15,060 bases of DNA, from the IMG/VR virus record IMGVR_UViG_2875683775_000007. One strand, given 5' to 3'. The stretch is from a virus. Taxonomy: Duplodnaviria > Heunggongvirae > Uroviricota > Caudoviricetes. This document shows positions 1 to 15,060 of the stretch, piece after piece (position 1 is the first letter of the stretch; the number at the start of each line of letters is the position of its first letter). The notes beneath the pieces were generated by a model. The model was not told the DNA's origin, ran no database searches, and saw only the letters and a program-made list of their open reading frames with translations. The position numbers and the translations under genes were made by a program.

Positions 1-201
1 TTACCCATTGGCGCGGCTTAAGAGCTTATTTTTGAATTCACAATGGTCACGATATAACCATCTTGCTCGCCCGTGGATAACTTTGGCTTTTGGAAGGTCT
101 CCGGACTTAATCCGATCATAGATGAAGGTTTTACCGAAGCCAGTATCGGCCATGATGAATTTCAAATCAACCAGTGAATCAGGCTGTAGTTCGTGTTGCA
201 T
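1..201 (-). CDS. torI: AlpA/TorI-family excisionase (recombination directionality factor), 66 aa
   Basis: Complete 66-aa ORF with stop at 1-3 and ATG at 199-201, preceded by GGAGA about 9 nt upstream. Small basic winged-helix-like protein typical of AlpA/Xis family; sequence matches my recollection of E. coli TorI of the argW prophage KplE1. Same strand as intS, as expected for the unusual KplE1/Sf6/HK620 recombination module. Confidence 0.6.
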   Translation of the reverse strand: MQHELQPDSLVDLKFIMADTGFGKTFIYDRIKSGDLPKAKVIHGRARWLYRDHCEFKNKLLSRANG

Positions 202-220
202 GAGTGCTATCTCCGAATAG

Positions 221-236
221 GGAATCGAACCTGCAA
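221..236. repeat. 16-bp exact direct copy (GGAATCGAACCTGCAA) of the argW T-arm segment found at 11310-11325; att core-like sequence
   Basis: Exact 16/16 identity between 221-236 and 11310-11325 in the same orientation; flanks on both sides are unrelated. Not a full tRNA, because no acceptor or complementary T-stem strand follows. Confidence 0.6.
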
Positions 237-246
237 ATCAGGTAAT

Positions 247-267
247 AAAAAAACCGCATTGATGCGG
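247..267 (-). terminator. Rho-independent terminator downstream of the 325-669 gene (minus strand)
   Basis: Inverted repeat CCGCA/TGCGG (254-267) with a run of 7 A on the plus strand (247-253), which is a 7-U tail on the minus-strand transcript. Confidence 0.55.
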
Positions 268-324
268 CGATGGTAGGTCTGGATATCTTGATAAATGAAA
301 ATGCCTCATCGAGTGTGAGGCGGG

Positions 325-669
325 TTAGTCCTTGCGTAGCTCGCTGATTCTTCTGTAAGTCTCTGGTGCTTTGTTCCCGTACGTCTTCATTTCAGACTTC
401 AACAGAGCAACGAGTGAATCCCATTCGTTGAGGATTCCTTTGAATGCCGGAACGCGCTTTGCAACCTTGTCGAATGAATCTCTGATTTCTGGAATCTGCT
501 CAACAAGTGCAACGCATCGTCGGAAATCGGCTGCGTCATGTGGAGCGCCGAAGCTATGACCATAGATATTCTTTTTCAGTCCACATGCGATTGAGGCAAG
601 AGTTGCGCTACTGATGCCTACATCGCCAGTCGATTGCCATTTCAAAACCTTCATAGCCAAATCTGACAT
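325..669 (-). CDS. Hypothetical prophage protein (about 114 aa from MSDLAMKV start)
   Basis: Open frame with GGAGA RBS 6-10 nt upstream of the ATG at 667-669; the ORF-track start at 696 lies in the terminator hairpin and is less likely. No family recognised. Confidence 0.5.
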   Translation of the reverse strand: MSDLAMKVLKWQSTGDVGISSATLASIACGLKKNIYGHSFGAPHDAADFRRCVALVEQIPEIRDSFDKVAKRVPAFKGILNEWDSLVALLKSEMKTYGNKAPETYRRISELRKD

Positions 670-683
670 TTCTTGTCTCCAAT

Positions 684-706
684 AAAAAACCGCCATCAGG
701 CGGTTT
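684..706 (-). terminator. Hairpin with flanking A/T runs; terminator-like on the minus strand, weaker on the plus strand
   Basis: Stem CCGCC (690-694) / GGCGG (699-703), preceded by an A-run (684-689) and followed by TTT; on the minus strand this is a hairpin plus a U-run just upstream of the RBS of the 325-669 gene. Confidence 0.45.
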
Positions 707-1115
707 GGTGTTCTTTCTGTTCTTCAATTCGAATATTGGTTACGTCTGCATGCGCTATCTACGCCCATATCATCCAGTGGTTATAGCAGTCGTTGATGTC
801 CTCTGCTTCGATAACCCTGAGACGGTCGCAAGATGGCTTGATGCTATGGCAAACCTTGAGCGACGAAACGCGCAGTTTAATGAGTTTAAAGCCGAGTGGA
901 TGAGCGCGAATGGCAACCCTGGACAATCGCGTAATGGCGGTCAGATATTGGGGTTGGATGTTAAAAAAGGTGAATCATTGGGGAGTGCCGTTAAGCGGTA
1001 TATGTCAATGAATACTGACGCAGCGCCAGCACAAGATTCGACACCTTCAGGAGAACCACGGAATCAGGTTGGATCATATACATCAAAATCAGGCATTCAA
1101 TTTACGGTGGAATGA
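705..1115 (+). CDS. Small ORF translationally coupled to the downstream gp16-like gene; possibly the 5'-truncated 3' end of a gp20-like ejection-protein gene
   Basis: Stop TGA at 1113-1115 overlaps the ATG of the next gene (ATGATG). The first ~20 codons run through the terminator hairpin and look non-coding, so the real coding start, if any, is later (for example the MANLERRN region). Position matches P22 gene 20 immediately upstream of gene 16. Confidence 0.3.
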
Positions 1116-2953
1116 TGAAAGTAACTGCAAACGGTAAGACATTTACCTTTCCTGATGGTACGAGCACCGAAGATATTGGCACCGCCATTGATGAGTATTT
1201 TGCTGGTCAGGCTGTTCAGCAACAAACAGTTAATCAGGCCAATAATGCACCAACACGGGAAGAGCCATCATTGATCCAACAAGCTGGCGATTGGCTCACT
1301 GGTGGTCAAAGTGCAGGGCAAATTGCAGAACAGGCTGGTCGTGGTCTGGTAAACATACCATTTGACGTATTGCAGGGCGGCGCAAGTCTGATTAATGCAA
1401 TCAGTCAGGGGCTTGGTGGACCCAAGGTTTTGGATGATGTTTATCGTCCAGTAGACAGACCGACAGACCCCTACGCGCAAGCCGGTGAAACAATTGGTGG
1501 GTATTTAGTTCCAGGAGTTGGAACGGCAGGAAGCATGGCTATTGGATCACTGGCAGAGGCCGCAAATCAGAAAGGCGATTTCGCACAAAATGCAGCTAAA
1601 AATGCCGGAGTTAACCTTGCCACTCAGGGTGTTCTTTCCGCAGCAGCAAAGGGAATAGGGCGTGGAATAACGGCTATAAAAGGTGATATTGCGCCAGAAG
1701 TGGCGAAGAAAATTACCACATCAGAATCGATGGGCGTGACACCAATGACATCTGATGTTATCCCGCCGAAAAATGCTTTCACTCGCGGCCTAACTCAGGA
1801 TGCCGAGGGGGCTTTGCTCGGGACAGGCTCAAAGCGAGCGGAGCAATATGCAACGCGTAGTAAGCTGGTAAGTAATTATTTTGACCGTTTTGGTGAGTAC
1901 AACCCTGATGATGTGGTGAAATCTCTTACCACCACGTTAAGGGGGCGGAAGGATGCCGCTGGCGCTGTTATCAATGACGTCACCAATAAAATGGGTAATG
2001 CCGCAGTTGATACCACAAATACCATGAATGCTCTGAATACAGCGATCGCAAGACAGGAACGGCTTGGGACGTCTGCCAATCAAAGCCTGCTTACATCCTT
2101 GCGTAACCTACGTGAAGAATTAGCAAACCCTGCAACTGATTTGGATGTTACGTTTGATCTCTTGCGTCAGCACAGAACAGCATTTAGATCTAATGTTCAG
2201 GGAGATGCTATGGTCTTCCCCAACCAGGCAAAAGCAGCTACCAATATGGTAGAGAATGCAATGTCAAAAGACCTTCGTAACGCAGTTGCTAAAAACCTCG
2301 GTGCATCAGACGCAGCAAAATACCTTAAAGCAAATTCCGATTATGCAAACGTTTATAATAAGGTGCTTAATAAAAACATTGCTAACAAGCTCAACAAGGC
2401 AAGCAGTGAAGCCAGTCCTGAACTTATAAATACCGTTGTATTAAGCAGAAAACCATCTGACGTGAAACGAATATGGAGCGCCCTGGATGATAAAGGGAAA
2501 GATGCTATGCGTGCAGCTTACGTCAGCAAAATAGCGGAAAAGGCCGGTGACTCTCCAGCCAAGTTCATCACTGAAGTTAATAAGCTGAAATCTCAGTCAG
2601 GCGGTGAAATTTACAACACTATTTTTTCTGGAAAGCACATGAAAGAGCTTGATGCTCTTCATGAAGTTCTACAGCAAACAGCAAGGTCAGACACCGCAAA
2701 TGTAGTAACTCAGACGGGGCAATCACAAGCCAACAGGATAAGGACGATTGGCGCAACTGCGACTCTTGGTGTATCAATGGGGCTTGAGGCTGGCTTTGGT
2801 GCAATGATGCGTTTGTATGAGTCCAAAGCAGCAAGGAATGCTCTCTTACGTCTGGCAAACACTAAAGCTGGAACGCCAGCCTATGAAAGAGCGTTGAGTA
2901 ACGCTGCAAATGCCATCAGGCCGCTGCTTGCTACTGAGGCAACACAGCAGTAA
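1112..2953 (+). CDS. Phage DNA ejection/internal virion protein, P22 gp16-like (613 aa)
   Basis: 613-aa Ala/Gly/Gln-rich protein of almost the size of P22 gp16 (609 aa), located immediately upstream of the immI/moron region as in P22 gene order; GGTGGA RBS before ATGATG. Assignment is by size and synteny, not sequence recall. Confidence 0.5.
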
Positions 2954-2977
2954 CGTATGGGGAATTGGATTCAATCG

Positions 2978-3367
2978 TTAACATTTTCTTTTTACTTTTC
3001 CAACAAAAGCTTTGGTTGAATCCATATTCCCATAACCAGAAATGGTTTTCGACATTAAAACTGTTCCATTAGGATGTATTACCCATGAGTCGATAACTCG
3101 TTGAGTTTCGCCATTCGCGCCGATTCCAATGATGGAGTTTTTAGACAATGCTTTGTAAGCCATGCCGCCCGCATCCGTCCCAGAATATGTGATACTGGCA
3201 TCTTCACCGTTTGTCTTAATGATGAATGTTCCACTAAAACCATCTTCTTCCGGTTGAAAATTATTTCGTTCTGAATAGCTTATTCCGTGCATATCTCCAA
3301 CGACCCAGCACTCTGCTGAGACAGAAAACGAGAAGACAAGGAAAGCCATTGCTATAATCAATTTCAT
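2978..3367 (-). CDS. Small secreted protein (cleavable signal peptide, 129 aa), function unknown; prophage moron
   Basis: N-terminus MKLIIAMAFLVFSFSVSA is a typical Sec signal with an AxA-type cleavage site; mature part has Cys near both ends. Lies with mnt on the minus strand in the slot where P22 carries sieA. Confidence 0.6.
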   Translation of the reverse strand: MKLIIAMAFLVFSFSVSAECWVVGDMHGISYSERNNFQPEEDGFSGTFIIKTNGEDASITYSGTDAGGMAYKALSKNSIIGIGANGETQRVIDSWVIHPNGTVLMSKTISGYGNMDSTKAFVGKVKRKC

Positions 3368-3382
3368 TTTAAGCCCTTATTG

Positions 3383-3718
3383 TTATTGATTCTTTTTGCA
3401 CGGAAATGTTTTTCCTACTGCTAGGGCGGTTAGTATAACTGCACTCTCATTTCTTGATTCTGGGTTTTTGTTTAGATATTTCTCAACGATATCGGTGTAT
3501 TGATACATGTCAACGCCATCAGGAGGACATAGAGAACCAATTAGTATCAATGAGTCAGTTACTCCGCGCAAATATCCAGTAATGTAAAGCGATGAAAAAT
3601 CATCACCCTTTTTACCTTGTTGAATGTTGTAAAGAAGGTCATTACCCGTTTGAAGCTCGCGCAGCTCAGCACTGGAAGAAGAGACAACTGCTAACAAGAA
3701 CAGTGATAGAAATCTCAT
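3383..3718 (-). CDS. Small secreted protein (signal peptide, 111 aa), function unknown; prophage moron
   Basis: N-terminus MRFLSLFLLAVVSSSSA is a Sec signal; two Cys in the mature part; its start overlaps the mnt stop by 4 nt, suggesting an operon with mnt. Confidence 0.6.
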   Translation of the reverse strand: MRFLSLFLLAVVSSSSAELRELQTGNDLLYNIQQGKKGDDFSSLYITGYLRGVTDSLILIGSLCPPDGVDMYQYTDIVEKYLNKNPESRNESAVILTALAVGKTFPCKKNQ

Positions 3719-3969
3719 TTCAAATCCTTTTCATAAATCTTTTTAAGTGTCTCAAACACTATAGCCTTGAACTGCTCAGCCTGCTGATCAGCCAAGCGTT
3801 CAGCTTCGTCGCGATATCCTGTAATCGGTGATGGTTTTGATAGTGCATCCTGAACGATTTGTAATAACTCAGAGTTCATTGACCTTCCGTTAGCCTCGGC
3901 TCTTAATTTCAATTTTTCTCTTACTTCCAAAGGCATACGGAAGTTAAAGTGCGGATCATCTCTAGCCAT
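3715..3969 (-). CDS. mnt: Mnt repressor (P22 immI)
   Basis: Protein begins MARDDPHFNFRMP...RAEANGRSMNSELLQIVQDALSKPSP, recognisably P22 Mnt (ribbon-helix-helix); GGAG RBS 9 nt upstream; divergent from arc. Confidence 0.85.
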   Translation of the reverse strand: MARDDPHFNFRMPLEVREKLKLRAEANGRSMNSELLQIVQDALSKPSPITGYRDEAERLADQQAEQFKAIVFETLKKIYEKDLK

Positions 3970-3991
3970 GCCATCACTCCAAGTTAGTGTA

Positions 3992-4021
3992 TTGACATGA
4001 TAGAAGCACTCTACTATATTC
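3992..4021 (+). promoter_or_regulatory. Pant promoter (-35 TTGACA 3992-3997, -10 TATATT 4015-4020) overlapping the Arc operator ATGATAGAAGCACTCTACTAT (3997-4017); divergent Pmnt elements overlap on the minus strand
   Basis: Consensus -35 and near-consensus -10 with 17-bp spacer; the 21-bp spacer/operator sequence matches the P22 arc operator as I recall it. On the minus strand TTGAGA (4020-4025) and TATCAT (3997-4002) form a plausible Pmnt. Confidence 0.7.
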
Positions 4022-4026
4022 TCAAT

Positions 4027-4043
4027 AGGTCCACCGTGGACCT
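4027..4043. promoter_or_regulatory. Mnt operator, perfect 17-bp palindrome AGGTCCACCGTGGACCT
   Basis: Perfect dyad centred at 4035, between Pant and the arc start, matching the known P22 Omnt sequence and position. Confidence 0.75.
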
Positions 4044-4059
4044 ATATTGTGAGGTGAAC

Positions 4060-4221
4060 ATGAAAGGAATGAGCAAAATGCCACAGTTCAATTTGCGGTG
4101 GCCTAAAGAAGTATTGGATTTGGTACGCAAGGTGGCGGAAGAAAATGGTCGGTCTGTTAATTCTGAGATTTATCAGCGAGTAATGGAAAGCTTTAAGAAG
4201 GAAGGGCGCATTGGTGCGTAA
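4060..4221 (+). CDS. arc: Arc repressor (P22 immI), 53 aa
   Basis: MKGMSKMPQFNLRWPKEVLDLVRKVAEENGRSVNSEIYQRVMESFKKEGRIGA is P22 Arc-like throughout; GAGGTG RBS at 4051-4056. The ORF-track start at 3997 lies in the operator and is rejected. Confidence 0.9.
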   Translation: MKGMSKMPQFNLRWPKEVLDLVRKVAEENGRSVNSEIYQRVMESFKKEGRIGA

Positions 4222-4289
4222 AGTTGAAGCCCCAACTGCTGTAACAGTCAGGGCTTCGGCATCAACAAATCGGATTAGGAAATATTGAC
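4222..4289 (-). ncRNA. sar: Candidate sar-like antisense RNA covering the ant RBS
   Basis: Minus-strand promoter-like elements (-10 TATACT, complement of 4296-4301; weak -35) would start transcription near the ant start codon; inverted repeat GAAGCCC/GGGCTTC at 4226-4258 sits about 65 nt downstream. Matches the known arrangement of P22 sar, but the terminator lacks a clear U-run. Confidence 0.3.
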
Positions 4290-5168
4290 ATGAAAAGTAT
4301 AGCAAAGGCACAAAACGATTTCACCATCTTCAAATTCGGCGACAGTGAAATCCGCGTCATCAACAAGTGCGGTGAGCCGTGGTTTGTAGCTAAAGATGTT
4401 TGTGATGCTTTAGATTTGACTAACTCACGCAAGGCGCTTACTGCACTTGATGACGATGAAAAGGGAGTAACTTTAAGTTACACCCTTGGTGGTGAGCAGA
4501 ATCTAAGCATTGTGAGCGAATCAGGTATGTATACATTGGTTCTGCGCTGCCGCGATGCAGTCAATAAAGGTTCAGTCCCGCACAAATTCCGCAAGTGGGT
4601 AACAGCAGAAGTTCTGCCTTCAATTCGCAAACATGGCGAGTATGTAAAAGGAAAGAAAACCACTGTTGAGGAAAGAACACCGCTACGCGATGCAGTAAAC
4701 ATGCTGGTAGGAAAGAAAGGACTTCGCTATGACGATGCATACAATATGGTTCATCAGCGTTTTGGTATTGACAGCATTGATGAACTTTCAATTGAACAAA
4801 TCCCGCTGGCCGTAGAGTACATCCACAGGGTAGTGCTTGAAGGTGAGTTCATTGGCAAACAAGAGAAGAAAACCAACGAGCTTTCTGCAAAAGAAGCAAA
4901 CAGCCTTGTATGGTTATGGGATTATGCCAACCGCTCACAGGCATTATTCCGCGAACTGTATCCGGCGCTAAAACAAATTCAATCGAACTATTCCGGCAGA
5001 TGCTACGACTACGGTCATGAATTCTCGTATGTTATCGGAATGGCGAGAGACGTTTTAATAAACCACACACGAGATGTTGATATCAATGAGCCAGACGGAC
5101 CAACGAATCTTTCCGCATGGATGAGACTTAAGAATAAAGAATTACCTCCTTCAGTACATAACTACTGA
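4290..5168 (+). CDS. ant: Antirepressor Ant (Bro-N domain protein)
   Basis: N-terminal region ([26 protein letters not shown]) is a Bro-N/antirepressor motif; directly downstream of arc as in P22; AGGAAA RBS. Confidence 0.8.
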
Positions 5169-5187
5169 CAGATAACCAACGCAACGA

Positions 5188-5210
5188 CCCAGCTTCGGCT
5201 GGGTTTTTTT
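5188..5210 (+). terminator. Rho-independent terminator after ant
   Basis: CCCAGC-TTCG-GCTGGG hairpin followed by 7 T. Confidence 0.8.
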
Positions 5211-5269
5211 ATGCCCAAAATTCACCGTAGCTACGCTGCGGCGATTCCTTGTATCTGGAGCAAATTAAA

Positions 5270-7918
5270 ATGACAGATTCAATAAATGCCAATGTTGTGG
5301 TAAGCATGCCTTCTCAACTCTTCACTATGGCGCGTTCTTTTAAAGCCGTAGCCAATGGTAAAATTTATATCGGTAAAATTGACACTGATCCGGTAAATCC
5401 AGAAAACCAGATTCAGGTTTATGTGGAGAACGAAGACGGCTCTCACGTTCCTGTTTCTCAACCAATCATCATTAACGCTGCTGGTTATCCGGTATATAAC
5501 GGACAGATTGCCAAATTCGTTACCGTGCAAGGCCATTCTATGGCTGTTTATGATGCGTATGGTGCACAGCAGTTCTATTTTCCTAATGTGCTGAAGTATG
5601 ACCCGGATCAGTTTAAACAAAAAGTATTATCAAATGATATGCTAAATATGTCTCCTCTTTATTTTGGAGCTAAGGGGGATGGGATTAGCGATGATACTGA
5701 AGCATTTGTCGCGTTGGAAATGGATATAAAAAATAGGGTTATTGATTTAAGTGGAAGAGCATTTTTTGTTACTAAAAGTTTTATTGGAAATAGCTATATA
5801 AATGGTTCTTTTATTCGTGATGGCAGTAAACGAATTGCGATTGGTGATCTTAAATTAAGAGATAAAAGAGAGCCGTTGATATTTTCCGGAATGCCAAAAG
5901 TATATAACACCAGACACACGTTGCGCAGAACTGAAGGTGCGGGTGGTTTATATGCGGTCATTCAGGGGTGTTGTTATGATGAAATTAACGACAAGATTTT
6001 TACTTTATCATCTACCACAGCATACGGTTATTGCATTAATGCCTTTGACGTGACGAATTCTGGTGAACTAGGAAGATACGACAGAACCCGTTCTACTGAA
6101 CTTGGGCATCAGGGGCTTGGATTGCATCATAATCCTGATGGTACTGTCGTGCTGTGGACATCGAAGCCTTATGGAACCGATGCCGCCAATCAATGTATTT
6201 CGATGGAAAATATATTGAGTTACACAGGGACAACCAACGGAGTATCTGAAGGTTTTATCACCTGGAAGTTGTTCCCCTATGATGGAATGAGCGCAAGCTC
6301 TACTCCAGCTGTATCAAGTTGTGAAAACTATCTACTTGCCAAGAAAATTTCATCGGATGGAATTACCTGCACGGTTCGTGTTTTCGACATAGTCAGCATG
6401 TGGAATAACAGAGCTCATAAAACTGATTATAGTGATGATTATTTAGTTGAGTTTAGCTATCAAAAACCATCACAAGAAGCATTTACCCAATCAATTGCTT
6501 GCGATGGGGCATACATTTACATACTTGAGTCACATACGTATGTTGGCATGACTAATTATATTTACGTATTTGCCTTAACAGGCAGGTTTATTGAGCGAGT
6601 AGATATTTCAACTGTTGGTGATGATGAAGCAAAATCTGACAGTACAGGAACTCCTGTTTATAAAGAGCCTGAGTCCCTAACAGTAATTAGAACGGAGAGT
6701 GGGTATGTTTTAACGCTGGGGATATGCACATATAAAGGAGTTGCTGAGAACGGGAAAAATGTATATCTGTTTGATATAGGCAGGTCTGGTTCGGTAGTGC
6801 AAAGCAAAGCAAGCCGTTCTGTATCCAGTAATACTGGTCTTCATAGTTCTGGCTCCCCGGAGTTCAAATATGGAGTAAGGGAGTACAATGATACTTTTCA
6901 CTGGACAGTTTGGCCAACAAGAAAGGGTTTTCAAACTAACCGGGATAACCCTATATTGTTTCTTGATGGCGGAATTACTGGTGGAATGCAGTTAGCTTCA
7001 AACGGCACGGAAGGGATGAGCAACTCATGGGTTTCCCGGCATCAGTCAGACACCGCAGAAGGACCAAGAGCAATAATGTATAAGTCTCGCTCTGGTGTTG
7101 TATCAACTGATAATTTTGGAGCTCTGCAGACAGGGGATGTATTGGGTACTCATGTATGGGCCGGTGATACAGGTAGTAAGGCTGTGCAATGCGCACACAT
7201 TAAATGCGTCACAAGAGGTAATCCTTCCGGAGACAATATCCCGGTTGCTTTCTACTTTGGAACCATGGGAGAGAGTGACGGCTTGCGTGACAGATGGGTA
7301 TTAACAGAATTAGGTCATTTTCGACCATCAGGTTCAAATCTTTATGATATTGGTACACAGTCGAATACTGTCAGAAACCTGTATATAAATAATAGCCCCA
7401 TTGTAACCAGCGACAGAAATTATAAGCAGGATGAAGCTTCATTATCTGATGCAGAACTACGGGTTGGAATGGCTATTTACCCGCTGATAAAAAAATTCAG
7501 AATGAAGGATGCTGTAAAAGAAAAAGGCTTGTCAGCGCGTGAGCATATCGGTGTAATTGCGCAAGATATACAATCCATCTTTGAATCTGAGGGGCTTGAT
7601 GCATTTTCTTATGGGGTTCTTTGCTATGAAGAGTGGGATGATGAGTATGAGAAAGTCTATGCAACAAGAAATGTGACCAGAAAAATTTTAATTGATGAAG
7701 AGTCTGGTCAGTATGATGAAATCACAGAGGAAGAAGAGTATGAAACTGGTGAAGTAAGGTTAATTATGGAATCAGGAAGAAAATTATCAGTGCGCTATGA
7801 CGAGTTAATGTTTCTGGCAATGAGCGCACTATATCATCACCATGAGCAGGATATTGCCAATATCACATCAAAGATTAATAATCTGGAAAAATTATTAAAG
7901 TTAACACTAAATGGTTGA
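5270..7918 (+). CDS. Tailspike protein: P22 gp9-like head-binding N-terminus, right-handed beta-helix (pectate-lyase-like) receptor domain, C-terminal intramolecular chaperone (peptidase S74-like) domain
   Basis: [44 protein letters not shown] is near-identical to the P22 tailspike N-terminus as recalled; [14 protein letters not shown] is the hallmark start of pectate-lyase-type beta-helix domains; C-terminal ~150 aa (SDAELRVG...[12 protein letters not shown]...) resemble the auto-cleaving chaperone domain of endosialidases and tail fibres. Start chosen at 5270 (GGAG RBS) rather than 5249. Confidence 0.85.
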
Positions 7919-7964
7919 TATGTGGTACTTTTAATGTATGCCCAGCTACATGCTGGGCAATGTT

Positions 7965-9080
7965 TTAAATTTCAGCTATAAAACCTTCATAATTATTTTG
8001 TAAAAAAGGTTTGATGAACTTACGCTGAGGGGTATAAATCATATCCTGATTTACTAAATCTGAGCGGATATTGAAAGTGGTTGAGAGCATGTTAAAGAAC
8101 ATCCTTTTCTTTTGCTCGTTGCCACCTGCTTTACCACATACCTTTTCCATCATTTCAAGGCATATCACCAGCCACGCATTGTAAAGCTTGGCCTTTTCTT
8201 CGTTAGTTTTTCCGCAAAAGTAAATCGTGTTAATAACCGAGTTAAGAATGAAGTGTCTATCTTCAAGAGGAAATTTTTGCCTTGATAAATGACCATTACC
8301 ATGGAATGTTAAATGATAATAATCTTTGTCAGCAAGAATAGATATATTGTTTGCTACAGATAGAGATTGAACCATAAATATTTTATCTTCAGCTACGGTG
8401 ATAGCTGGGTTGAAGAGAATGTTATGCTCTTTAAGCATATTTCTTCGGAAGAATTTGAAAATAGTTAACGACCGCAAGAGGTGATGCTTGGTTATATCTG
8501 CCTTATCTACAATTTTCACCTTGTATGGACGGATAGGCACCTCGCGATTACCATCTGATGCAATTTTGAAGTAAACAATATCACTATTATTTTTATCAGC
8601 AATATGAACCCCTCTCTCAAGAAGAGTTTCGTCAATATAGTCATCGGAATCCATGAAGAAAATATAACGCCCTTTTGCTGCTTTTATCCCCTCATTTCGC
8701 GGGGTTGAAGCGTTACCTGAACCAATTTCTCGGCGAATAATTCTGTAGTTAATATCCGGTGCTATATTATATTCTATAGCAGCAATGCTTTTGTCACTTG
8801 AACAATCATCGACAAAAATAACCTCAAAGCGATCCTTATTAATTGTTTGGTTATTAAGTGAGTTAATGCATTTAAGAATAAGTTTTTCACGATTATGAAC
8901 AGGGATAACAACTGACACATCTAATGGGCAAAAATGGTTAATCTCATTAACTACAGTCGTTATTTTAGTAAAAGCCGCCAACAAAGCTGTTGTTAAATCA
9001 GTAGAAGATAAAAGGCTTTCTTTTTTAGTATTAGCTTTTATGTTAAAATAGAACCAATTATTACGAGGTACAAAATCCAC
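7965..9080 (-). CDS. Family-2 glycosyltransferase catalytic-domain ORF (downstream part of phase-variable gene; frame stays open upstream through the repeat)
   Basis: VSVVIPVHNRE...FEVIFVDDCSSD...FFMDSDDYID are GT2 (GT-A fold) signature motifs including the DxD. The ORF-track M at 9080 is a GTG with no RBS; in this frame the sequence reads (SQPA)n-FVSV upstream with no stop. Gene is visibly AT-rich compared with the flanking chromosome. Confidence 0.8.
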   Translation of the reverse strand: MDFVPRNNWFYFNIKANTKKESLLSSTDLTTALLAAFTKITTVVNEINHFCPLDVSVVIPVHNREKLILKCINSLNNQTINKDRFEVIFVDDCSSDKSIAAIEYNIAPDINYRIIRREIGSGNASTPRNEGIKAAKGRYIFFMDSDDYIDETLLERGVHIADKNNSDIVYFKIASDGNREVPIRPYKVKIVDKADITKHHLLRSLTIFKFFRRNMLKEHNILFNPAITVAEDKIFMVQSLSVANNISILADKDYYHLTFHGNGHLSRQKFPLEDRHFILNSVINTIYFCGKTNEEKAKLYNAWLVICLEMMEKVCGKAGGNEQKKRMFFNMLSTTFNIRSDLVNQDMIYTPQRKFIKPFLQNNYEGFIAEI

Positions 9081-9082
9081 GC

Positions 9083-9433
<351 letters not shown>

Positions 9434-9976
9434 TGTACAACCTCTATTGTTAGCAATGTTTATTGGTATTCAAAAATAAGGCGCTAATATTGGGGCCACC
9501 ATATCTTTGTCGTGTTTAATTATTGTTTGGCCATTCGCATCACGCTTTGCTATGTGGCGTAATATTATTTATGAGTGCGAATAGTTTCGCTTGTTATTGT
9601 TTTGCTGGTCATAAGTTTGACATAGTCAAATCCACAGAATATCATTTAAGTATATCTAAGAGCCGAGCATTATATGTGCGCATGTATTGGATGTGAAGGT
9701 CGAGCATTAGTCCGGGATGTCATATATTCCTGAAAAGGTAACATGCTTAATAATTGCTAAGAAAGTACATACCTAATCTGAAAGAGTCTGGCTATAGGTT
9801 TGCGCACAAGATCATAGAACTTGTTTTGTTTATAGATAGCACAACATATGGATTTAGTTGAAATTGCATGGATGATTTGATCGCAGGAACTCAGAATTGC
9901 AGATGAGACAAAACTGAGACACACAAAGCTTTGCACTGGATTGCAAGACTTTGTGCTATTCGATAGTTAAGGTGTA

Positions 9977-11134
9977 TCACTCCACCTTTTCATCAATCCA
10001 GTCCGCCCACCACTGCATCATTTCTCTGCGCTTATCTAGATACTGAGCATGGTTGTAAATCCCGCGCACAGATCCGCCGTTGGCATGTGCCAGTTGCACT
10101 TCAATGGCGTCGGCGGGCCATTCGTGCTCGTTCATAATCGTGCTGAATTCATGCCTGAATCCGTGACCGCTTTCCAGACCTTCATAGCCGATTTTTTTGA
10201 TCACAAGCAGTACCGCATTCTCGCAGATTGGCTTCTTCTTATCGTTGCGACCGGCAAAAACAAACTCTGATACTGGTTTAGTGATTGAGCTTAGCGTAGT
10301 GAGAAGTTCAACTACCTGGTCTGACATAGGAACCACATGAATTTTGCGTCCCTTCATCACACTGGCGTCGATGGTGATAATCCTGTTTTCAAAATCGACG
10401 TTCTTCCATAGCATGGAACGAAGCTCTTTCGTTCTTAGGGCTGTGTAGCGCAAAACTTTAGTCGCAATGAGCGATACGATGCTTCCTGAAAATGTTGCAA
10501 GTGCTTTGTTGAATGCCGGGATCTGGTCGGCAGGAAGAAACGGGAAGTTCTTCTTGCGGTATCCCTTCATGGCGTCAGCAAGGTCAGGTGCTGGGTTATA
10601 TTTAGCCCTGCCGGTGACAATAGCGTAACGGAAAACCTCGCCGCATCTTCTGCGGGCTTTGTTGGCTCGCTCCATTGCACCGCGATCTTCGAATCTGCGG
10701 ATTACTTCCAGCAGTTGCATCGGCTCAATATCCTGAATCTCAAGGCCGCCGATGATGGGCAAAATGTCGTCATCAAACATTTTGGCAAGTTCAGTTGCAT
10801 AGCCTACTGACCAGACTTGCTTCTTGTGCTCGTACCATTCCTTGTAAATCGCACTAAATGAATTGTTGTTAGACGAAGCCTTTTTCGCCTTTACCGGGTC
10901 GATGCCAACCGAGATGTCTTTCCTCGCGGTCCATGCTTTATCCCTTGCTTCCTGCAAAGTCATAAGCGGATATTTTCCGACGGTCAGGATTTTCTCCTTA
11001 CCGTCAATCTTGTAGCGAAGCTGCCATACCTTTTTCCCTGACACAGGGACATAAAGGTACAGGCCATTACCATCGAGTAGGCGGTATGGTTTTTCTTTCG
11101 GCTTTGCTGCTTCAATCTGCTTAACGGTGAGCAT
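9977..11134 (-). CDS. intS: P4/KplE1-type tyrosine integrase (385 aa from MLTVKQIE start)
   Basis: Adjacent to the 3' end of argW and co-oriented with it; N-terminus and length match IntS of the argW prophage as I recall it; C-terminal region carries the tyrosine-recombinase catalytic domain. An alternative upstream GTG start at 11170 (ORF track) cannot be excluded. Confidence 0.85.
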   Translation of the reverse strand: MLTVKQIEAAKPKEKPYRLLDGNGLYLYVPVSGKKVWQLRYKIDGKEKILTVGKYPLMTLQEARDKAWTARKDISVGIDPVKAKKASSNNNSFSAIYKEWYEHKKQVWSVGYATELAKMFDDDILPIIGGLEIQDIEPMQLLEVIRRFEDRGAMERANKARRRCGEVFRYAIVTGRAKYNPAPDLADAMKGYRKKNFPFLPADQIPAFNKALATFSGSIVSLIATKVLRYTALRTKELRSMLWKNVDFENRIITIDASVMKGRKIHVVPMSDQVVELLTTLSSITKPVSEFVFAGRNDKKKPICENAVLLVIKKIGYEGLESGHGFRHEFSTIMNEHEWPADAIEVQLAHANGGSVRGIYNHAQYLDKRREMMQWWADWIDEKVE

Positions 11135-11180
11135 GGGTAAAAATCCGGTGGGTAAAATTATTTTATCCACTTTTTACCCG
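11135..11180. promoter_or_regulatory. Clustered GGGTAAAA(A/T) motifs (two direct, one inverted) at the int start, in the attL/int promoter region
   Basis: GGGTAAAAA at 11135-11143, GGGTAAAAT at 11150-11158, inverted copy CTTTTTACCC at 11171-11180; candidate integrase arm-type or RDF binding sites. Confidence 0.35.
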
Positions 11181-11295
11181 TCATGGAGTGCGGCTGTCAA
11201 CGATCTGACGCGAACCATTACGAACTGTGCATCTACAGAAGGCTTGATATTCAGGGGATTTTGCGGACTGGTACGGATGGGGGCGAACTGATAAA

Positions 11296-11370
11296 TGGTG
11301 TCCCCTGCAGGAATCGAACCTGCAATTAGCCCTTAGGAGGGGCTCGTTATATCCATTTAACTAAGAGGAC
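11296..11370 (-). tRNA. argW: tRNA-Arg (anticodon CCU), 75 nt including CCA
   Basis: Reverse complement reads GTCCTCTTAGTTAAATGGATATAACGAGCCCCTCCTAAGGGCTAATTGCAGGTTCGATTCCTGCAGGGGACACCA; cloverleaf with 7-bp acceptor stem, anticodon loop CUCCUAA, T-loop TTCGATT. Confidence 0.95.
11310..11325. other. attL core candidate inside argW (16 bp identical to 221-236)
   Basis: Exact direct repeat of the 221-236 sequence, located in the tRNA T-arm next to the integrase gene. Confidence 0.55.
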
Positions 11371-11445
11371 AATGCGGCATGAGTATACCCGCTAATGGAG
11401 TGCGGGGTAAGTACGCTGCCGCTCGATTGCTTAAACCCTCGCCAT

Positions 11446-12378
11446 TTATGCCGGGTTTTTATAATTTTTCTTAATGTTTTCCGCACGTTCTGCTTTTTGG
11501 CGTGCTTCTGCTTTACGCTTATTGCTCATGTCGTTACGAATCTGTGCATGACTCATTAACGCGAAGATAAAGGTGCCGCCGCAGATGTTCCCCGCTAAAG
11601 TAGGTAGTGCGAAGGGCCAGATGAAATCGCTCCAGTGCAGCGTGCCGTTAAACACCAGATAGAGGATTTCAACAGAACCGACCACGATATGGGTGGTGTC
11701 ACCCAGGGCAATAAGCCAGGTCATCAATATAATCACCACAATCTTTGCCGCACCCGCTGCAGGAAACATCCAAACCATAGTGGCGATCAGCCAGCCGGAA
11801 ATGATCGCGTTGGCAAACATCTCGCTGGGGGTGTTCTTCATCACATCCATGCCGATTTTGACAAATGCATCGCGAGTTTCTTCATTGAAGATAGGCATAT
11901 ATTCAAATGCCCACGCCGCAATACCTGTCCCGAGAATATTACCCAGCAGCACGACGCCCCATAACCGTATAAGTAAGCCGACGTTGCTCATTGTCGGTTT
12001 TTGCATGACGGGTAGTACCGCAGTCACGGTATTTTCGGTAAATAATTGCTGGCGGGCCATAATGACGATAATAAAACCAAAGGTATAACCGAGATTCTCC
12101 AGCAAGAAGCTGCCCGGCACACCTTCCAGTTCGACATGAAATATCCCTTTTGCCAGTAACGAAGCGCCCATCGACAGACCCGCCGCAATGGCTGACCACA
12201 GTAGCGCCATTGCGTCGCGTTCCAGCTCTTTTTCACCATCCTGGCGGATATGCTCATGAATTGCCATCGCCCGGGAGGGGAGTCGGTCTTCATCTATTTC
12301 TATTTTTTTGCCGCGCTCTTTTTCTTCGCTCTCAACTTCAATTTCGTCGCTGTGTTGATCAATTTTGTCGTTGTCCAT
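11446..12378 (-). CDS. yfdC: Inner-membrane protein of the formate/nitrite transporter family
   Basis: 310-aa protein with acidic N-terminal tail followed by multiple hydrophobic helices; sequence and position next to argW match E. coli YfdC as recalled. Confidence 0.85.
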   Translation of the reverse strand: MDNDKIDQHSDEIEVESEEKERGKKIEIDEDRLPSRAMAIHEHIRQDGEKELERDAMALLWSAIAAGLSMGASLLAKGIFHVELEGVPGSFLLENLGYTFGFIIVIMARQQLFTENTVTAVLPVMQKPTMSNVGLLIRLWGVVLLGNILGTGIAAWAFEYMPIFNEETRDAFVKIGMDVMKNTPSEMFANAIISGWLIATMVWMFPAAGAAKIVVIILMTWLIALGDTTHIVVGSVEILYLVFNGTLHWSDFIWPFALPTLAGNICGGTFIFALMSHAQIRNDMSNKRKAEARQKAERAENIKKNYKNPA

Positions 12379-12671
12379 GGTCTCTTCTCTTGAATTAGCA
12401 CGTATAGCTAAAGCGTAGCGGCTTTTTTGCTCGCAACTGACGGGAGTTACTCTGAAAATGTAGAAAAGGCTGCGTTTGCCTTTTTCTGTTTCTATAAAAT
12501 CAAGTAGCCTACAGGGCGGCGATTACCAGGCTATGATCAAATCAGCAAATCAGGGCGTCTGGACATCAGTTGACGTGCTGTTACAATCGCCCACACCTAA
12601 ACAGGCGGATACGGTATCGTTCCGTCATGGATGGCAAACTGCATAAGCCATAAAAAAACAGGGAGACATTT

Positions 12672-13427
12672 ATGAAGCTTCGCCTGTCGGCGCTTGCTCT
12701 GGGAACTACGCTTCTGGTGGGGTGTGCGAGTTCCGGTACAGATCAGCAAGGGCGTTCTGACCCGTTAGAAGGGTTCAACCGCACCATGTACAACTTCAAC
12801 TTCAATGTATTAGACCCGTATATTGTTCGACCGGTCGCTGTCGCCTGGCGTGATTATGTTCCGCAACCGGCGCGTAACGGTTTGAGCAACTTTACTGGCA
12901 ACCTTGAAGAACCTGCGGTGATGGTTAACTACTTCTTGCAGGGCGACCCTTATCAGGGGATGGTCCACTTTACCCGCTTTTTCCTGAACACCATTTTGGG
13001 GATGGGCGGTTTTATTGATGTTGCAGGGATGGCGAACCCGAAACTGCAACGGACTGAACCTCACCGCTTCGGTAGTACGCTTGGTCATTATGGCGTGGGT
13101 TATGGGCCTTACGTCCAGTTACCGTTCTACGGTAGCTTCACGCTGCGTGATGACGGTGGTGATATGGCGGATGGTCTTTACCCGGTTCTTTCCTGGCTGA
13201 CCTGGCCGATGTCTGTGGGTAAATGGACGCTTGAAGGGATAGAAACTCGTGCGCAGTTGTTGGATTCCGATGGTCTGCTGCGTCAGTCGTCCGATCCTTA
13301 TATTATGGTGCGCGAAGCGTACTTCCAGCGTCATGATTTCATCGCTAATGGCGGCGAACTCAAACCGCAGGAAAATCCGAACGCACAAGCGATTCAGGAT
13401 GATTTAAAAGATATTGATTCTGAATAA
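12672..13427 (+). CDS. mlaA: Outer-membrane lipoprotein MlaA (VacJ), phospholipid transport
   Basis: 251 aa, lipobox LLVGC at the N-terminus, conserved MlaA/VacJ core; divergent from yfdC as in E. coli. Confidence 0.9.
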   Translation: MKLRLSALALGTTLLVGCASSGTDQQGRSDPLEGFNRTMYNFNFNVLDPYIVRPVAVAWRDYVPQPARNGLSNFTGNLEEPAVMVNYFLQGDPYQGMVHFTRFFLNTILGMGGFIDVAGMANPKLQRTEPHRFGSTLGHYGVGYGPYVQLPFYGSFTLRDDGGDMADGLYPVLSWLTWPMSVGKWTLEGIETRAQLLDSDGLLRQSSDPYIMVREAYFQRHDFIANGGELKPQENPNAQAIQDDLKDIDSE

Positions 13428-13440
13428 GAAACAAATAAAA

Positions 13441-13471
13441 AAGGTGAGTCGCAAAACTCACCTTTTTTGTT
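13441..13471. terminator. Bidirectional rho-independent terminator between mlaA and the convergent downstream gene
   Basis: AAGGTGAGT-CGCAAA-ACTCACCTT hairpin flanked by an A-run upstream and a T-run downstream, so both strands get a U-tail. Confidence 0.8.
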
Positions 13472-13608
13472 GTTATCCCTCAATTACCACAAGTAAAAGG
13501 AGATAAACCGACAATGACCCGGACGTAATGATGTAAAAATACTGATGTTCGTCACTGACTATTTCCGATATTCAGGCGTTGAAAAATCAAAAAACTGGAA
13601 AAATAATT

Positions 13609-13911
13609 TTAAATATCATCAAAATTAACACCTGGCGCAGATAGTTGATTAATTTCATTTTGATATTTCGCCTGGCGATTTTGAAGTCTTTTTTCAACGT
13701 TATCTTCGAGATCCTTAAAGTCTTTGTATTTATTTTCAGGATGGTCAACGTCAACTTTGTTAGCGAATAAATTAGAAATTATTTCTTTTACATTATCGCG
13801 TCTAAATTTTGCATCGTCCACTTGAAAATCATATCTTATTGCTCGACCATAACGTTTAAAAACGTCGTTTGGTTCTCTCAGTCTTTCCCCGTTGAGCTCG
13901 TTTACAACCTG
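13609..13911 (-). pseudogene. 3' portion of a chromosomal gene split by IS1 (C-terminal 100 codons)
   Basis: Frame is open from the IS1 junction (QVV at 13903-13911) to the stop at 13609; the ORF-track start at 13821 is a GTG within this frame. By synteny with E. coli K-12 this would be the gene next to mlaA (possibly yfdF), but I do not recognise the sequence itself. Confidence 0.6.
13903..13911. repeat. IS1 target-site duplication, left copy (TACAACCTG)
   Basis: 9-bp sequence identical to 14680-14688 directly flanking the IS1 ends. Confidence 0.9.
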
Positions 13912-13966
13912 GGTGATGCTGCCAACTTACTGATTTAGTGTATGATGGTGTTTTTGAGGTGCTCCA

Positions 13967-14242
13967 GTGGCTTCTGTTTCTATCAGCTGTCCCTCCTGTT
14001 CAGCTACTGACGGGGTGGTGCGTAACGGCAAAAGCACCGCCGGACATCAGCGCTATCTCTGCTCTCACTGCCGTAAAACATGGCAACTGCAGTTCACTTA
14101 CACCGCTTCTCAACCCGGTACGCACCAGAAAATCATTGATATGGCCATGAATGGCGTTGGATGCCGGGCAACTGCCCGCATTATGGGCGTTGGCCTCAAC
14201 ACGATTTTACGTCACTTAAAAAACTCAGGCCGCAGTCGGTAA
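13967..14242 (+). CDS. insA: IS1 InsA (transposition inhibitor/N-terminal part of InsAB' transposase)
   Basis: 91-aa protein [23 protein letters not shown]... matches IS1 InsA. Confidence 0.9.
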
Positions 14243-14664
14243 CCTCGCGCATACAGCCGGGCAGTGACGTCATCGTCTGCGCGGAAATGGACGAACAGTG
14301 GGGCTATGTCGGGGCTAAATCGCGCCAGCGCTGGCTGTTTTACGCGTATGACAGTCTCCGGAAGACGGTTGTTGCGCACGTATTCGGTGAACGCACTATG
14401 GCGACGCTGGGGCGTCTTATGAGCCTGCTGTCACCCTTTGACGTGGTGATATGGATGACGGATGGCTGGCCGCTGTATGAATCCCGCCTGAAGGGAAAGC
14501 TGCACGTAATCAGCAAGCGATATACGCAGCGAATTGAGCGGCATAACCTGAATCTGAGGCAGCACCTGGCACGGCTGGGACGGAAGTCGCTGTCGTTCTC
14601 AAAATCGGTGGAGCTGCATGACAAAGTCATCGGGCATTATCTGAACATAAAACACTATCAATAA
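14161..14664 (+). CDS. insB: IS1 InsB reading frame (expressed as InsAB' transposase by programmed -1 frameshift)
   Basis: 167-aa frame [21 protein letters not shown]... matching IS1 InsB; overlaps the insA 3' end in the -1 frame. Confidence 0.85.
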
Positions 14665-14679
14665 GTTGGAGTCATTACC

Positions 14680-14688
14680 TACAACCTG
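14680..14688. repeat. IS1 target-site duplication, right copy (TACAACCTG)
   Basis: Identical to 13903-13911. Confidence 0.9.
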
Positions 14689-15060
14689 ATGATCGGAACC
14701 AGTTGCAAATGATTCTGCCATGATAGCTTTACTGCTTTCAAACCACGCTGAAGCACTCCTGGCGTTTTCACTACAATATTGGGTGAGACTATCACCATTA
14801 ATACGAATTCCTCTTTGAATGTGGTAGTCGTCCTGATCGTAGTAACCGAGAGATAAGTAATCATTTCCGTTTTTATTTTTAATTACAATAGCGAGAGAGT
14901 CGCCTTTTTTATCTTTACCGTACCAGGTAAATAAGTCCGTTGGTTCGCTTTTCCCGCTCTCATCAAATTCCGTTACCGTATGTCTGAGTTTGTGTGATAT
15001 CTTATCGAAGATAAAACCAGGATCTCCATCATATATTTCTTTTAATGCGCTGAAGATCAT
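14680..15060 (-). pseudogene. 5' portion of the same IS1-interrupted gene (runs to the window edge; may continue beyond it)
   Basis: 127 native codons ending in QVV (the TSD) before the ORF-track frame runs into IS1; joins in frame to 13609-13911 once IS1 and one TSD copy are removed. Confidence 0.6.

Follow-up and report, generated by a model that had tools for sequence, protein, structure and literature searches.

A conserved copy of the argW T-loop segment in the torI leader of KplE1/HK620/Sf6-type prophages is no attachment-site core and a candidate operator

The 16-bp direct repeat shared by argW and the torI leader in the window (the whole stretch of 15,060 nucleotides analysed here) is a segment of the argW T arm and no attachment-site core. 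The best explanation of its second copy, which we consider rather likely from the comparison of sequences, is that it is a conserved box in the torI leader and a candidate operator for the proteins of the recombination module, among which TorI would be the likeliest. The att structure of this module is already known; what remains is that the leader of torI contains an element of 10-13 nt with the sequence of the argW T loop. This box was found in elements of Escherichia, Salmonella, Citrobacter, Serratia, Pantoea, Edwardsiella and Erwinia, and in CPS-53 of E. coli K-12.

Results

The 16-mer GGAATCGAACCTGCAA occurs at 221-236 and at 11310-11325, inside argW, on the plus strand in both cases, and these are the only two copies in the window. 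No further copy was found in the window with up to two mismatches allowed, where 0.01 were expected, and none of 200 shuffled windows contained two or more copies. As a look-elsewhere control, 2000 windows were simulated with the dinucleotide statistics of the window; any exact 16-mer direct repeat appeared in 67 of them, and one touching a given 75-nt interval, such as a tRNA gene, in a single one of the 2000. The sequence-only reading of this DNA had described the pair as sharing one orientation and lying beyond chance, and these counts bear it out.

The argW gene, encoding tRNA-Arg(CCT), is located at 11296-11370 on the minus strand and was the sole tRNA gene found by ARAGORN. Its copy of the 16-mer (11310-11325, minus strand) corresponds to argW nt 47-62, which run from the end of the variable loop through the 5' strand of the T stem and the T loop into the 3' strand of that stem, of which they include the first 2 nt. 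The T-loop box at 221-236 (minus strand) is an exact copy of these nucleotides, with the sense TTGCAGGTTCGATTCC, at -36 to -21 from the torI ATG. In argW, nt 47-62 lie immediately 5' of the real crossover core, which consists of nt 62-76 plus one nucleotide. The 16-nt crossover core of KplE1, HK620 and Sf6 was experimentally defined as CTGCAGGGGACACCAT (PMC2951348), and the core of Kapi1 was given as AATGGTGTCCCCTGCAG in a study that tested a deletion of attB (PMC8787464). The true core at attL of the window, with the sense CTGCAGGGGACACCAT, occupies 11295-11310 on the minus strand, namely the last 15 nt of argW plus one, as placed by these two studies and by the empty-site junction. It abuts the 16-mer and has base 11310 alone in common with it, a 1-nt overlap. 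The name of 16-bp argW core, previously given to the repeat, belongs to this adjacent 16-mer (PMC2951348). The argW copy at 11310-11325 is probably the B-side core-type arm of attB/attL. The 16-mer repeat is also present in K-12 CPS-53, HK620 and Sf6. The tRNA sequence does not continue into the flanks of 221-236, neither ARAGORN nor Rfam found a tRNA gene or an RNA family there, and a permissive Rfam search of window 1-900 gave chance-level matches only, such as isrK-like terminators; neither flank is a tRNA 3' end, as was said before.

The torI gene (1-201, minus strand), so annotated in the matching genomes, encodes the 66-aa recombination directionality factor or excisionase. The T-loop box lies 20 nt upstream of its ATG and directly downstream of the intrinsic terminator of an early-left gene (246-268, minus strand; hairpin 253-268 plus a T run). 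Both the torI-like gene on the left of the copy, reading away from it, and the terminator separating the copy from the right-hand gene had been correctly recognized in the sequence-only reading. The Shine-Dalgarno block GGAGAT of torI is located at 209-214 (minus strand), at a 5-nt distance from the box that is fixed in most lineages of the alignment, and the 3' side of the box reads CTATTCG GAGATAGC. The integrase gene intS occupies 9977-11134 on the minus strand, with its ATG at 11134, and has the length of K-12 intS. In the free phages HK620 and Sf6 the box, torI, the attP core and int follow one another contiguously in this order on one strand, and no extra copies of the box beyond chance were found in HK620. 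Homology to HK022, 434 and other lambdoid phages extends from about 248 rightwards and the integration module lies to the left of this point, so that the terminator is also the mosaic joint of the module. The first IMG/VR scan returned identical TorI proteins only and was used for mapping this joint. At 80 IMG/VR loci with identical TorI, three different terminators with their upstream genes abut ATT(G/A)CCTGATTTGCAGGTTCGATTCCCTATTCGGAGATAGCACTC-ATG, and the box is therefore the outermost conserved piece of the torI-attP-intS module. The second copy of the 16-mer is a fixed part of this KplE1/HK620/Sf6-type recombination module.

At the other end of torI, two tandem GGGTAAA motifs, the IntS arm-type consensus, lie 12 nt apart at +196 and +208 from the torI ATG (window 1-8 and past its left edge; locus L001, 3980-4003). 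The final codons of torI and its stop (AAT GGG TAA A) form part of the first motif. Both motifs are kept in all diverged lineages, which suggests that the end of torI may double as P-arm binding sites. An arm-type site inside torI (GGTAAAAC in the GFGKTF codons) was considered and rejected, as its synonymous positions are not conserved.

The location of the true core also settles where the prophage ends. E. coli BL12 carries the core as ATGGTGTCCCCTGCAG 73 nt past the torI stop, followed by dsdC, and K-12 MG1655 has the same 73-nt spacing beside dsdC, where the core copy at the end of CPS-53 is annotated as pawZ, an argW pseudogene fragment. A repeat search of the K-12 locus returned two pairs, the core (argW 3' end and pawZ) and the 16-mer (argW and 20 nt upstream of torI). 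Because the core copy sits 73 nt past the torI stop in K-12 and other relatives, the true attR is predicted at about 74-89 nt to the left of the window start. Part of one earlier proposal, that attR lies left of the window, thus agrees with BL12 and K-12. Since attP lies between torI and intS, integration places these two genes at opposite ends of the prophage, as was explicitly stated for int and xis of Kapi1 (PMC8787464). With attP between torI and intS and attR outside the window edge, the puzzle of a core copy in the wrong place dissolves.

A synthetic query made of the dsdC flank, the core and argW was searched against 5426 complete E. coli genomes. An uninterrupted empty site was present in 912 of them and the break falls exactly at the core, and the junction expected from recombination between the two 16-mers was present in none of the 5426. 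The 16-mer, which had been taken as a possible prophage boundary, does not mark one, and the proposal of a recombination scar between tandem elements receives no support from these genomes. In vitro, excision works with a 135-bp attR whose end, at primer attR-IHF2, is window position 24, and which excludes the copy at 221-236 (PMC3509656). This fragment, together with the contiguity of torI, attP and int in HK620 and Sf6, contradicts the suggestion that 221-236 is attR and that torI belongs to a neighbouring element. Moreover, the two copies do not bracket the element as duplicated att sites do, for the interval 236-11310 does not include torI, a gene of the module. Located inside the prophage, the copy at 221-236 has no part in the known recombination reaction. 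A pseudo-att hybrid, in which the box, 7 nt and GAGATA would form B-O-X', was also rejected; its downstream part is unlike either the overlap or C'.

The attP/attR core of the relatives contains the inverted repeat GATGTC-TGCAGGG-GACACC (locus L001, 3905-3935; locus L003, 1360-1395; many IMG/VR loci), which suggests a 7-bp overlap TGCAGGG. The C half-site tracks the acceptor-stem variant of the local tRNA in several lineages (GACGTC with GACGCC), and in many lineages it is TTCGATGTA, a degenerate T loop. All relatives found carry a TGCAGGG(G/A)-type core, the argW 3'-end sequence, irrespective of what comes after it, so that this set contains no other tRNA target with which the box could covary.

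The conservation of the box was followed in two steps of increasing breadth. The first comparison used torI relatives from species-representative genomes and Erwinia phage Midgardsormr38, and its nine diverged genera or phages came from E. coli, Citrobacter, Serratia, Pantoea, Edwardsiella, a metagenome-assembled genome and the Erwinia phage. Upstream of torI, GGTTCGATT(C/T)C was the sole invariant non-coding block in this set, and in the torI coding sequence of the same nine members 13 of 66 third codon positions were invariant, the longest invariant run being 9. Two more IMG/VR scans, seeded with divergent TorI proteins, yielded 35 distinct leaders from several genera. The block GTTCGATT(C/T)CC was invariant in all 35, with diverged flanks and synonymous sites. 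It is followed on the 3' side by a variable 5-mer and then by GGAGAT(A/G)AAAC and the ATG. Salmonella phage g341c, whose TorI is 47% identical, carries AAGTTCGATTCCC, and modules of the g341c type are among the 35. The invariant columns of the 35 distinct leaders and the nine diverged genera or phages define in the window an inner block at 220-230 (minus strand; sense GTTCGATTCC plus C), which includes GTTCG; the base 5' of GTTCG varies across leaders. Judging from this alignment, purifying selection acts on the inner block GTTCGATT(C/T)CC in modules that have diverged widely.

Further identity to argW is lineage-specific: E. coli has TTGCAG 5' of the block, Serratia and one Pantoea have CCTG 3' of it, and this suggests descent from a longer T-arm-like segment. 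The window has one box. Tandem copies, CAGGTTCGATTCCC-GT-CAGGTTCGATTCCC, were found with a 16-nt period in the Midgardsormr38 group (locus L004, 2702-2760; loci L214, L215 and L218), and locus L211 has a tandem box with a 13-nt period; the duplications are independent. In a minority of modules the box is missing or degraded: Dryocola (L014) and L176/L178 show a clean deletion, and the remaining cases are Klebsiella phage Chronis, in which torI is coupled to its upstream neighbour, and a small number of others. Because such natural box-less variants exist, the box is not essential for the module. We conclude from these patterns that the T-loop box probably is a functional, dispensable cis element and no scar.

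As to the rest of the window, the host flank 11296-15060, which holds argW, yfdC, mlaA and yfdF with an IS1 in it, has 100% identity to E. coli B derivatives, and in the matching derivatives BLR(DE3), C43(DE3) and C2566 the argW-dsdC site is empty. The prophage arrangement of the window was found in no complete RefSeq E. coli genome. Bases 1-819 match torI-containing prophages in many E. coli genomes. At a deletion joint near 810-819 this early-left DNA (1-819, next to torI) is joined to P22-type DNA-ejection protein genes, with ORFs of 136 aa and 613 aa at 705-2953, and from the joint about 29 kb of the P22-like genome are missing. The prophage is thus a deletion remnant of a P22-like phage. 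After the ejection genes the order is a Rap1a-like gene, an Arc/Mnt-type repressor gene, ant, the tailspike gene, a family-2 glycosyltransferase gene and intS. The Rap1a/Tai-family immunity protein gene (3383-3718, minus strand; Pfam PF18602, E = 1e-14) lies between the ejection-protein and the Arc/Mnt-type repressor genes.

A tetranucleotide repeat, (TGGC) x 47.5, is present at 9090-9279 (190 bp, 100% matches) inside a small ORF at 9083-9433 (minus strand), which consists of a 52-aa N-terminal part followed by (ASQP)n. This ORF ends right at the start of the family-2 glycosyltransferase gene (7965-9080, minus strand), in the O-antigen-modification slot beside intS. In E. coli GMF054 the segment is otherwise 100% identical and has an extra 23 units (92 bp), by which the reading frame is shifted. 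The repeat looks like a slipped-strand phase-variation switch. GMF054 (L277, NZ_CM183924.1 2917724-2938876) carries the same glycosyltransferase and repeat module in a second, unrelated P22-like remnant, which adjoins torT-torR-torCAD. This is the operon on which inhibition by TorI was originally discovered, and the neighbourhood is probably a coincidence.

Discussion

The T-loop box is probably regulatory, because it is conserved across distant relatives. We propose that it would be an operator for the module's own DNA-binding proteins, TorI in the first place and IntS in the second, through which the expression of torI and int would be controlled. Binding at the box could reduce the transcription that passes through torI into attP and intS, or alternatively the transcription starting at the predicted pI promoter that overlaps the box. 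The promoter on which such an operator would act is itself putative, and a promoter scan detected no sigma-70-like promoter at 201-260. We would rank the candidate readers of the box from a TorI operator through an IntS half-site and RNA-level control down to a plain promoter.

Five TorI sites were reported on attL in blocks of 28 nt, they are inactivated by changing GTTCG, GATCG or GTCCG, and TorI and IntS both repress PintS (PMC2951348). In the window the P' arm with the five sites occupies 11199-11289 on the minus strand, and the positions deduced from that study, all on the same strand, are I1 11282-11289, I2 11262-11269, I3 11219-11226, I4 11209-11216 and I5 11199-11206. They read AGTTCGCC, AGTCCGCA, AGTTCGTA, GGTTCGCG and AGATCGTT. 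The sites have the form NGTTCG, GTCCG or GATCG followed by a pyrimidine, and their offsets from the core are the same in six phages, including HK620, Sf6, Midgardsormr38 and Chronis. On the torI-sense strand the box is GGTTCGAT, and its GTTCG pentamer has the tRNA-sense orientation of all P'-arm sites. TorI is a natural candidate because this pentamer is common to the box and the known TorI sites in the same orientation. Repression of transcription entering attP-intS also fits the known role of TorI, and the box would be a second point, besides the known repression of PintS, at which TorI limits torI and int expression. As for phased arrays, which would allow cooperative binding, the window has the box once; E. 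coli carries a weak second site, TATTCGGA, located 12 nt downstream, whose counterpart in the lineages of Pantoea stewartii and Edwardsiella is TGTTCGGA or TGTCCGGA. On the other hand, chance should produce about 15 occurrences of RGTTCG per 15 kb, and therefore the pentamer alone proves nothing. The pyrimidine after the pentamer is present in all 28 readable P'-arm TorI sites of the six phages, whereas the A at this position of the box never varies. Conservation of the box also extends 5 nt (ATTCC) past the 3' limit that a TorI 8-mer requires, and in this it is closer to the T loop of the tRNA or to an IntS half-site than to the TorI consensus. That TorI itself binds the box is thus a serious possibility on which we remain more doubtful than convinced.

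A wider form of the proposal is that the phage keeps the non-exchanged half of its tRNA target, the T-loop or B-arm side, next to the excisionase gene as an operator. It would be occupied by the integrase, as a decoy attB half-site, or by the excisionase through GTTCG, and occupancy would feed back on the expression of both proteins. We regard this form as speculative and put it forward tentatively.

The integrase is the second candidate, and its version of the proposal comes close to an idea of the sequence-only reading, namely control of torI by IntS. The box would then be an isolated IntS core-type half-site that copies the B arm of attB, the T-loop side flanking the overlap region. The core-binding domain of IntS would sit on the box, possibly bridged to GGGTAAA at the torI stop, and torI would be looped out or silenced in the lysogen. 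In lysogens IntS is produced constitutively, and torI is the point at which excision is controlled (PMC2951348), which suits this mechanism. The conserved block G53-C62 ends exactly at the start of the likely 7-bp overlap TGCAGGG, and the box corresponds to the 10-11 bp of argW directly flanking this putative overlap, as a half-site would. Many attP C sites are TTCGATGTA, like the T loop TTCGATTCC, and TTCGAT is common to C sites, T loop and box at an equal distance from the overlap. The conservation of the box over 10-11 bp, with A after GTTCG, is also closer to the tRNA than to the TorI consensus. However, neither a TGCAGGG overlap nor an inverted GACACC-like partner is found beside the box, and the invariant extra C after the box is a T in the tRNA. 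The C sites themselves vary widely between lineages (GTAGATGTC, TTAGGTGTC, TGTGATGTC), so that IntS seems not to demand an exact sequence. Heterobivalent integrases such as lambda Int generally bind isolated core-type sites weakly, which also speaks against a lone half-site. Taken together, we consider an IntS half-site unlikely.

Control at the RNA level is a less probable alternative to an operator. The box would pair imperfectly, as the 5' arm of a hairpin, with the Shine-Dalgarno block (GUU..AUUyCC with GGAGAU..AAC), or would mimic a T arm, and would limit the translation of TorI from read-through transcripts. The fixed distance of 5 nt between box and Shine-Dalgarno block in most lineages and the conservation of GGAGAT(A/G)AAAC are consistent with such a helix. 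In the proposed helix 88.9% of the cells pair, as compared with 34-67% when the partner is slid, the sole polymorphism of the box (C to T) converts a C-A mismatch into a U-A pair, and the Serratia and Edwardsiella variants are able to form T-arm-like stems. Against it, there are no compensatory changes, the two sides being almost invariant, RNAalifold gives the consensus an energy of only -1.18 kcal/mol, and single-sequence folds of the E. coli type are no better than shuffles (z = -0.5 and -1.2). When the leaders of seven lineages were folded, the minimum-free-energy structures differed between lineages and no common structure emerged. In the window's own leader the T stem is not formed, and the leader matches no Rfam family. 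We therefore find an RNA-level function of the box improbable.

It is still less probable that the box is a mere part of a cII-activated pI promoter and that its likeness to argW is meaningless. The annotation of HK620 places a phage integration promoter at 1664-1702, corresponding to window 208-246, and a cII site at 1689-1701, corresponding to window 233-245; pI of Sf6 is annotated at the same place, and the stretch is also part of the boundary sequence bsq2. These annotations are sequence predictions that predate the recognition of hkaC as an excisionase. The cII repeats are TTGC-N5-TTGC in HK620, as against N6 at pRE of the same phage, the window reads TTAC-N5-TTGC with an imperfect first tetrad, and in other genera the repeats are not conserved (TTGC-N6-TCCA, or absent). 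What is conserved is the would-be spacer and not the hexamers. A plain promoter is, on this evidence, a very improbable account of the box.

The box could also be a neutral relic without present function, left by an older tRNA-derived att identity of greater length or by tandem elements that recombined. Different lineages do keep differing extra tRNA-identical bases around the common block (E. coli as against Serratia and Pantoea), and in all lineages the identity of the box stops where that of the core starts. Ten positions invariant in 35 distinct leaders, despite diverging flanks and synonymous sites, are nevertheless unlike a neutral relic, and so are the independent tandem duplications. 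An origin from argW is compatible with a present function, and only the lack of function is disfavoured; we hold it to be highly improbable. That 221-236 is attR, or a secondary att site recombining with argW, is practically discounted, for this exact 16-nt direct repeat in the orientation of the tRNA-gene copy has only 1 nt in common with the experimentally defined core (PMC2951348, PMC8787464), lies inside free phage genomes about 300 bp from attP, is missing from the functional attR fragment (PMC3509656), and predicts a junction seen in 0 of 5426 genomes against 912 empty sites at the true core.

The operator proposal is thus the one that we carry into the comparison with known systems. If its wider form is true, prophage stability would have a previously undescribed control point, which even E. 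coli K-12 would carry. The silencing of torI is the key step in the maintenance and excision of KplE1 (PMC2951348), and the box would be an obvious candidate site for this silencing. The copy of the 16-mer upstream of torI is not mentioned in PMC2951348, PMC3509656 or PMC8787464, and a text search for GGTTCGATTCC together with argW gave no literature match, although an earlier mention is possible.

The closest known system is the argW module of KplE1 (CPS-53), HK620, Sf6 and Kapi1, from which the window has torI, intS, argW, the core, five TorI sites and the GGGTAAA sites. Within this module type the 16-mer of the window is the T-arm segment adjoining the core and not the core. The TorI sites I1-I5 are 8-nt, cooperative sites that repress PintS, and GGTTCG of the box equals the first six bases of I4 in the same orientation. 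Unlike them, the box is on the opposite (P) side of the core, at a distance of about 300 bp, has A in place of the pyrimidine, and shows conservation over 10-11 nt where theirs spans about 6. The pawZ fragment at attR of K-12 CPS-53 is, like the box, a short argW-identical fragment on the torI side of the prophage; pawZ is a duplicated crossover core and a product of integration, whereas the box is carried by the phage and comes from the part of the tRNA that is not exchanged. With the lambda-type pI, the cII-activated int promoter from which xis is not expressed, the box shares its place inside the stretch annotated as pI in HK620 and Sf6; here, however, the hexamers and cII repeats are neither good nor conserved and the box alone is conserved.

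P4 Vis, P2 Cox and 186 Apl are excisionases that double as transcriptional regulators. The logic proposed for the box is the same as for these proteins and for the repression of intS by TorI, with a directionality factor acting near a promoter of recombination genes. For P4 Vis, P2 Cox and 186 Apl this was shown experimentally, whereas the case for the box is built on motif, position and conservation. The box is probably an additional candidate site of a known kind, a binding site for proteins of the recombination module, in a well-studied system.
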